This document shows, one piece after another, positions 40,398-41,360 of a stretch of 64,000 nucleotides of DNA. The DNA is taken from NCBI RefSeq assembly GCF_003334355.1, contig NZ_QOWP01000007.1. The stretch is one strand, 5' to 3'. Position 1 is the stretch's first letter. Every line of letters starts with the position of its first letter. The DNA comes from Escherichia coli. Lineage in GTDB: Bacteria > Pseudomonadota > Gammaproteobacteria > Enterobacterales > Enterobacteriaceae. The notes beneath the pieces are model-generated. The model saw only the letters and a list, made by a program, of their open reading frames with translations. It was not told where the DNA came from and did no database searches. The position numbers and the translations under genes were made by a program.

Positions 40398-40420
40398 ATT
40401 AAGGATGTTGTAACTAAAGT
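40398..40420. promoter_or_regulatory. Replication terminus site TerB, overlapping the tus promoter
   Basis: Ter core GTTGTAACTAAAGT within ...AATTAAGGATGTTGTAACTAAAGTGG, 10 bp upstream of the tus start. Confidence 0.8.
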
Positions 40421-40430
40421 GGTTAATATT

Positions 40431-41360
40431 ATGGCGCGTTACGATCTCGTAGACCGACTCAACACTACTTTTCGCCAGATGGAACAAGAGCTGGCTGCAT
40501 TTGCCGCTCATCTTGAGCAACACAAGCTATTGGTTGCCCGCGTGTTCTCTTTGCCGGAGGTAAAAAAAGAGGATGAGCATAATCCGCTTAATCGTATTGA
40601 GGTAAAACAACATCTCGGCAACGACGCGCAGTCGCTGGCGTTGCGTCATTTCCGCCATTTATTTATTCAACAACAGTCCGAAAATCGCAGCAGCAAGGCC
40701 GCTGTCCGTCTGCCTGGCGTGTTGTGTTACCAGGTCGATAACCTTTCGCAAGCAGCGTTGGTCAGTCATATTCAGCACATCAATAAACTCAAGACCACGT
40801 TCGAGCATATCGTCACGGTTGAATCAGAACTCCCCACCGCGGCACGTTTTGAATGGGTGCATCGTCATTTGCCGGGGCTGATCACCCTTAATGCTTACCG
40901 CACGCTCACCGTTCTGCACGACCCCGCCACTTTACGTTTTGGCTGGGCTAATAAACATATCATTAAAAATTTGCATCGTGATGAAGTCCTGGCACAGCTG
41001 GAAAAAAGCCTGAAATCACCACGCAGTGTCGCACCGTGGACGCGCGAGGAGTGGCAAAGAAAACTGGAGCGAGAGTATCAGGATATCGCTGCCCTGCCAC
41101 AGAACGCGAAGTTAAAAATCAAACGTCCGGTGAAGGTGCAGCCGATTGCCCGCGTCTGGTACAAAGGAGATCAAAAACAAGTACAACACGCTTGCCCTAC
41201 ACCGCTTATTGCGCTGATTAATCGGGATAATGGCGCGGGCGTGCCGGATGTTGGGGAGTTGTTAAATTACGATGCCGACAATGTGCAACACCGTTATAAA
41301 CCACAGGCGCAGCCGCTTCGTTTGATCATTCCCCGGCTGCACCTGTATGTTGCGGATTAA
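40431..41360 (+). CDS. tus: DNA replication terminus-site-binding protein Tus
   Basis: 309 aa [39 protein letters not shown]. Confidence 0.93.

Follow-up and report, generated by a model that had tools for sequence, protein, structure and literature searches.

The question raised by this locus is whether the Ter-like sequence lying immediately before tus in the stretch of Escherichia coli DNA analysed (64 kb, hereafter the window) is a working replication terminator, which replication forks it opposes, and whether it also governs transcription of the gene for the protein that binds it. Taken together, the evidence makes it very probable that positions 40398-40420 are the E. coli chromosomal terminator TerB, in the form of a common natural allele, and that Tus bound there is both a fork barrier and the means by which the site acts as the tus operator. 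The site, its spacing and orientation, the identity of Tus and the cross-genus arrangement come from the present analysis, and the start of transcription inside Ter comes from published data; repression by Tus and fork arrest at TerB are taken from the literature. Descriptions of the TerB site, its polarity and autoregulation date from 1991, and the conservation of a Ter beside tus was published in 2021. TerB/tus is a clear case of one protein-DNA complex serving both replication control and gene regulation.

The 14-mer GTTGTAACTAAAGT occurs once in the 64-kb window, at 40407-40420 (+), and forms the 3' portion of the full 23-bp Ter site, ATTAAGGATGTTGTAACTAAAGT, of which position 1 is 40398, the start coordinate given in the original prediction. 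As originally predicted, ten bases (40421-40430, GGTTAATATT) separate it from the tus ATG at 40431; the distance from TerB to the tus ATG is given as '11 bp upstream' in published work (PMC8707476). Goodall et al. (PMC8347550) define the conserved Ter core as position 6 together with positions 8-18, and report that positions 1-5, 7 and 19-23 are variable among E. coli phylogroups. The original prediction was thus correct in the sequence and position of the 14-mer, but not in calling it the Ter 'core', since it covers Ter positions 10-23, the last five of which (19-23) belong to the variable flank. By the published definition, core positions 8-18 (ATGTTGTAACT) are exact at 40405-40415 and the G at position 6 is found at 40403 (+), with the GC(6) pair intact, i.e. 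there is no mismatch at the invariant core positions. Canonical bases are likewise present at A5 (40402; T on the complementary strand) and T9 (40406). Changes at G6, A5 and T9 have been blamed for the weak or non-locking behaviour of TerF, TerH, TerI and TerJ (PMC8707476).

Alignment to the Ter consensus, proposed with the prediction as a check, gives an exact match to the 16-mer AGNATGTTGTAACTAA, and the window TerB is identical at 21 of 23 positions to K-12 TerB (AATAAGTATGTTGTAACTAAAGT; NC_000913.3). No second Ter-like site was found in the window at up to three mismatches to the 16-mer consensus, nor any second Ter or pseudo-Ter at up to six mismatches to TerB. That the site is TerB rather than another Ter is indicated by its location between rstB and tus, with synteny, spacing and orientation identical to those in K-12. 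The features discussed are collected in Table 1.

Table 1. Features of the TerB/tus region, in window coordinates.
Feature	Position	Strand	Basis and remarks
rstB (sensor kinase)	39054..40355	+	ORF and RefSeq annotation of identical BLR(DE3) sequence
RNA hairpin, 10-bp stem	40364..40392	+	between rstB stop and tus -10
Candidate -35, TGGTCA (4/6 match)	40370..40375	+	predicted; 17 bp upstream of -10; identical in K-12
Extended -10, TGcTATAAA	40390..40398	+	hexamer TATAAA at 40393-40398, its last base being Ter position 1
TerB, 23-bp Tus-binding site, ATTAAGGATGTTGTAACTAAAGT	40398-40420	+	sequence and K-12 alignment; very probably fork barrier and tus operator
C(6), opposite G6	40403	-	flips into Tus pocket and locks complex; non-permissive end (role: PMC8707476, PMC10331603)
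tus transcription start (+1)	40404..40405	+	Ter position 7 or 8; 26-27 nt 5' UTR
Weak Shine-Dalgarno-like AAGTGG	40417..40422	+	predicted from sequence; overlaps Ter positions 20-23
tus, 309-aa DNA replication terminus site-binding protein	40431..41360, including stop codon	+	ORF, Pfam, PDB, RefSeq
fumC	41357..42760	-	ORF list and RefSeq; convergent with tus

The two differences from K-12 TerB are A2T (40399) and T7G (40404); within the 75 bp between rstB and tus there are three further SNPs relative to K-12. Tus does not read the base at position 7 through any specific contact (PMC8347550), and 1-2 SNPs per 23 bp are tabulated for terB in PMC10331603 (Goodall et al. 2023). When 61 bp spanning the site were used as the query, matches without mismatch were obtained in at least 1111 of the 5426 complete E. 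coli genomes, carriers of the A2T/T7G allele including B-, C- and O157:H7-type strains; K-12-type genomes are 96.7% identical over the 61 bp. K-12 TerC also has G at position 7. Among the matches listed, G7 is rare, being present in 4/92 Ter sites from other Enterobacterales, and T occupies position 7 in all 20 of the tus-adjacent Ter sites of other species. T7G alters a base at or next to the tus +1, not one contacted by Tus. High-affinity Tus binding and polar fork arrest have been published for K-12 TerB (PMC10331603, PMC8707476), and, judged from its sequence, the T2/G7 allele probably behaves like the K-12 allele.

The surroundings of the site are those of the E. coli chromosome, the gene order in the window being rstA-rstB-TerB-tus-fumC-fumA. 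RefSeq annotation of identical sequence gives rstA, rstB, tus, fumC and a class I fumarase, in the order and on the strands found in K-12 MG1655. Many complete E. coli chromosomes, those of ATCC 8739, strain C and BLR(DE3) among them, match positions 40100-41500 at 100% identity, and the rstB-TerB-tus region was found in 5425 of the 5426 complete E. coli genomes. One of the approximately 5400 matches to this region lies on a plasmid-labelled record, which could be a mislabelled replicon or an assembly artefact.

The cognate Tus is encoded beside the Ter site (tus, 40431-41360). The tus product matches Pfam PF05472 (Ter) end to end (E = 4.6e-137), and is identical at 308 of 309 residues to the protein in PDB entries 1ECR, 2EWJ, 2I05 and 2I06, a set that includes a locked-complex entry; the sole change is I23A. 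A GTG at 40419, given as the tus start in the ORF list, was rejected, both the RefSeq protein and the crystallised protein beginning at the ATG at 40431. The 3' ends of tus (+) and fumC (-) overlap by 4 bp (41357-41360), leaving no room for separate terminators.

Elsewhere in the window, the left end (1-7350) is a remnant of a Qin-type defective prophage, in which the DicF sRNA is matched at 4073-4124 (+) (Rfam, 76.7 bits). The related stretch of BLR(DE3) is annotated with hokD, rem, a Cro/CI-type regulator, a YdaT-family toxin, dicB and ydfD. The first ~7.3 kb of the window differs from BLR(DE3), positions 7352-64000 being 99.56% identical to it; the best matches (99.9%) are other E. coli strains, e.g. 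LR-64-1.

The polarity of the site can be read from its orientation. G6 (40403) lies at the rstB-proximal end of TerB, i.e. at its non-permissive face, and it is the breaking of the GC(6) pair by the helicase arriving at this face that produces the lock (PMC10331603, PMC8707476). With its G6/C6 end turned towards rstB, the site arrests forks that travel in the + direction (clockwise) and lets those arriving from the fumC side pass. The cluster comprising TerB, C, F, G and J is reported to arrest the clockwise fork (PMC8707476). [quoted passage not shown]

By synteny, the + strand of the window is the + strand of K-12, where oriC is at 3,925,744-3,925,975 and dif at 1,590,750-1,590,777. In K-12 the core of TerC begins at 1,609,162; TerC and TerB (1,684,226-1,684,248) share a strand, both reading 5'-...G6...-3' on the + strand. 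Arithmetic from these coordinates places K-12 TerB 2.40 Mb clockwise and 2.24 Mb anticlockwise of oriC, ~79 kb past the oriC antipode for a clockwise fork and 75 kb beyond TerC. Such a position accords with a trap of 'type II', where the Ter beside tus forms the second barrier (PMC10331603, PMC8707476). Almost everywhere in the window the + strand has a negative GC skew (cumulative value -0.40), the sign to be expected of a region whose usual replication is by the anticlockwise fork, the fork that reaches TerB from its permissive side. No dif site is present in the window; in K-12 it is 93 kb away. The original assignment of the window to the replication terminus region, with a definable polarity of fork arrest, is borne out, in that the role of TerB, synteny with K-12 and GC skew all agree; the orientation relative to oriC, established via K-12 synteny, is that which blocks the clockwise fork. 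TerB thus anchors the window in the E. coli terminus, on the oriC-distal side of dif and TerC, and fixes the permitted direction of replication.

With regard to transcription, the operator overlaps the promoter, the -10 element ending at Ter position 1 and the +1 falling at Ter position 7 or 8. SMRT-Cappable-seq of K-12 (PMC6131387, Supplementary Data 2) gives a start for the tus (b1610) operon at 1,684,232 (forward), which, with position 1 of K-12 TerB at 1,684,226, is Ter position 7. Cappable-seq of EDL933 (O157:H7; PMC10469882, Table S5, sheet 3) places a gene-specific start 26 nt before the tus start codon, at Ter position 8, equivalent to 40405 in the window. The disagreement of 1 nt may reflect a difference in coordinate convention. 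Both data sets derive from strains other than that of the window (K-12 and EDL933); two other O157:H7 genomes carry the exact 61-bp sequence of the window across the site. The published starts lie 6-7 nt downstream of the extended -10. A sigma-70 consensus scan of 39900-41700 called no promoter, because the -10 hexamer TATAAA lacks the final T, and the promoter assignment is inferred from the published start-site data together with a reading of the sequence. The Cappable-seq supplement of PMC4782308 contained no entry in the coordinate range searched.

Several other signals lie nearby. The one terminator-like match returned by the scan (40288-40300) was dismissed, being inside rstB. A perfect TTGACA (40352-40357) lies over the rstB stop codon in this allele (CTGACA in K-12), and the sequence 16-18 bp further on, AAGTCA, does not make a good -10. 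According to a comparison table in PMC10469882, MG1655 has a start 86 nt upstream of tus; its counterpart in the window would be close to 40345. In other genera, a clearer GGAG or AGGAG directly follows Ter.

The tus mRNA begins within the Tus-binding site, beside G6. TerB had been predicted to overlap both the promoter and the start of tus; this holds for the transcription start and for the last base of the -10, but not for the start codon. Published work also places TerB in the tus promoter (PMC8707476), and tus autoregulation, with a rise in tus expression when Tus is absent, is attributed in later papers to Natarajan et al. 1991, Roecklein et al. 1991 and Roecklein and Kuempel 1992. The geometry implies that bound Tus would be incompatible with binding or opening of the tus promoter by RNA polymerase; that bound Tus sits on the +1 fits the published autoregulation. 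The proposal that Tus binding blocks transcription of its own gene is thus supported, both by the +1 inside Ter in K-12 and EDL933 and by the earlier regulatory work.

The arrangement recurs across the Enterobacterales. A scan for GKATGTTGTAACTAA, with one genome per species, returned at least 120 loci, of which 21, among the matches listed, contain a homologue detected by tblastn with the Tus of the window (43-94% identity). Ter lies directly upstream of tus and in the same orientation in 20 of these 21 loci, and is reversed in none (among the matches listed); in the 20 genomes, again among the matches listed, 2-23 bp (mostly 7-11) lie between Ter position 23 and the start codon. These genomes are those of Escherichia albertii, two Citrobacter, three Enterobacter, Superficieibacter, Pluralibacter, two Yersinia, two Serratia, three Photorhabdus, Acerihabitans, Mixta, Rosenbergiella and two MAGs. 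The exception is Pantoea sp. IMH, in which only a degenerate Ter-like sequence is present upstream of tus. The homologue in this genome is 53% identical, the degenerate sequence (AATGTTGTTACTTAG) lies at ~4486 (- strand), and an exact-core Ter match occurs elsewhere in the same locus.

Of the 21 tus-adjacent sites, 10 have a -10-like hexamer (at least 5/6) at the 5' edge of Ter, against 7 of the 72 other Ter sites (among the matches listed); the register of the hexamer relative to Ter moves by a few bases between genera. The sample, selected by an exact Ter pattern and limited to the matches listed, shows the recurrence of the arrangement, not its frequency. The recurrence is in line with Toft et al. 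2021 (PMC8707476), whose search for fork traps across the Enterobacterales took the Ter beside tus as its seed. Matches to the Ter pattern in Bacteroidetes, Firmicutes, archaea and others were disregarded, there being no Tus homologue in the surrounding stretches, and because, by arithmetic, ~1000 such 15-mers are expected by chance in 298 Gb.

In the mechanism that we favor, a replisome moving in the + direction (from rstB to tus, clockwise) would unwind the G6/C6 pair at 40403, upon which C6 would dock into Tus and the complex would lock, while a fork from the fumC side would displace Tus and pass. TerB would act as a second-line barrier behind TerC in the 'type II' fork trap. A Tus monomer on TerB would also cover approximately +1 to +14, abutting the -10, and exclude RNA polymerase, leading to negative autoregulation and a low level of Tus. 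It could be argued instead that the site is essentially a tus operator only, with a negligible role as a barrier, as TerC, 75 kb nearer the midpoint, catches the clockwise fork first. TerB is indeed not the innermost site (in K-12, TerC is at ~1,609,162 versus 1,684,226 for TerB, itself 79 kb beyond the oriC antipode), adjacency to tus is the single feature that has been kept across genera, and outside the Enterobacteriaceae the tus-adjacent Ter is innermost, TerC looking like a later addition (PMC8707476). Against this, 2D-gel analyses reveal substantial pausing of wild-type forks at TerB, among the highest along with that at TerC (PMC10331603, PMC8707476), and the highest Tus occupancy by ChIP-seq is at TerB (PMC8707476). 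Furthermore, the orientation of Ter is kept in 20/20 other genomes, which a pure operator would not need, unless promoter geometry imposes it. An operator-only role is therefore improbable.

Still less likely, to the extent of being nearly discounted, is that the site is a chance or decayed Ter-like sequence without function in this strain. The two differences from K-12 could be taken in this sense, as could the finding that the 14-mer GTTGTAACTAAAGT, with two mismatches allowed, arises by chance in 24/100 shuffles. Yet both the 14-mer and the 16-mer consensus are matched exactly and the full site at 21/23 positions, and the full 23-mer with up to three mismatches was found in 0/100 dinucleotide-preserving shuffles versus once in the window. 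Nothing in the core or at G6 is altered, the locus has the flanking genes and spacing of K-12, the allele is mismatch-free in those 1111 or more E. coli genomes, and the arrangement is kept across genera.

The region immediately upstream of TerB, where the rstAB transcript ends, merits consideration in its own right. The hairpin located there has a fold energy of -16.1 kcal/mol (z = -2.6) in the window allele and -10.6 kcal/mol (z = -0.9) in K-12, the SNPs at 40369 and 40385 both strengthening its stem in the window allele. Comparable hairpins are present in E. albertii, Citrobacter, Enterobacter and Yersinia aldovae, and hairpins or true terminators are found upstream of the tus promoter in several genera, so that a terminator of the upstream gene abutting the tus promoter appears to be common. 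In Serratia oryzae, a GGGGC...GCCCC hairpin with a U-rich tract, and in Yersinia aldovae a hairpin with a 15-bp stem, lie immediately upstream of the tus -10 region. For K-12, a 'novel' 3' end of rstA-rstB has been reported at 1,684,218 (SMRT-Cappable-seq; PMC6131387, Supplementary Data 1), equivalent to 40390 in the window, a point 8 nt before Ter position 1 and 13 nt before position 5. The rstAB reads from that start comprise 11 that end at 1,684,218, 4 with ends within 50 bp and 2 that read through; the same data set includes a minor rstA-rstB-tus read-through operon (PMC6131387). The hairpin ends 2 nt downstream of the equivalent of this 3' end, which is not followed by a U-tract.

It is conceivable, though on balance doubtful, that TerB is also a polar transcriptional roadblock at which Tus stops RNA polymerase coming from rstAB, a role, as terminator or insulator of the upstream operon, that would add to the barrier and operator functions and not replace them. 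A polymerase halted by a roadblock typically leaves ~12-15 nt between the 3' end of its RNA and the obstacle's edge, and the distance from the rstAB 3' end to the first contacted base pairs, ~12-13 nt, is in this range. Consistent with a roadblock, the 3' end lies just before Ter, most reads end there (11 versus 2 that read through) and the U-tract is missing. Tus is, in addition, listed among RNA polymerase roadblocks (Guajardo and Sousa 1999, cited in PMC10310618). On the other hand, the rstAB read numbers are small, and the hairpin near the 3' end, together with those in other genera, means that the end could be a weak intrinsic terminator in which Tus has no role; exonuclease trimming back to the stable stem could also generate the end without Tus. 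The roadblock may, moreover, already be covered by Roecklein and Kuempel 1992.

If the roadblock does operate, the 'novel' rstAB 3' end would be Tus-dependent and tus would be insulated from the RstAB regulon. The fuller proposal that TerB is a three-way element, acting in fork arrest, tus repression and stopping of the rstAB polymerase, is slightly more speculative again, as is the related proposal that A2T/T7G shifts the steady-state level of Tus. Such an effect of A2T/T7G on Tus level, if real, would concern roughly a fifth of E. coli genomes.

Comparison with known systems places the window locus closest to K-12 TerB/tus (Natarajan 1991; Roecklein 1991, 1992), with which it shares the rstB-TerB-tus-fumC locus, the 10-bp gap and the orientation, as well as the -35 and -10 hexamers, the +1 inside Ter and, apart from I23A, the protein. 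It differs from K-12 in having A2T, T7G and the three additional intergenic SNPs, two of which strengthen the hairpin. With the 'type I' fork traps of Edwardsiella tarda, Dickeya, Proteus and Yersinia (PMC8707476), the window shares a Ter directly upstream of tus, in the same orientation, that serves as operator and barrier. A Ter placed in this way was observed here in Yersinia, Serratia, Photorhabdus, Acerihabitans, Mixta and Rosenbergiella. By contrast with the window and K-12, however, the tus-adjacent Ter of type I traps is innermost, whereas in the type II arrangement TerC, which is outside the window, is expected to lie inside TerB.

K-12 TerC has in common with the window TerB the GGATGTTGTAACTAA core, the G at position 7 and an orientation against clockwise forks; TerG presumably shares the TerC/TerB GGATGTTGTAACTAA core and orientation. 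Both TerC and TerG differ from TerB in having no association with the tus promoter, and in their flanks. An analogous logic is seen in Bacillus subtilis, where the rtp gene adjoins Ter sites and is repressed by its own product. RTP is, however, a winged-helix dimer, its fold and sites being unrelated to Tus/Ter, and the resemblance is one of analogy, not homology.
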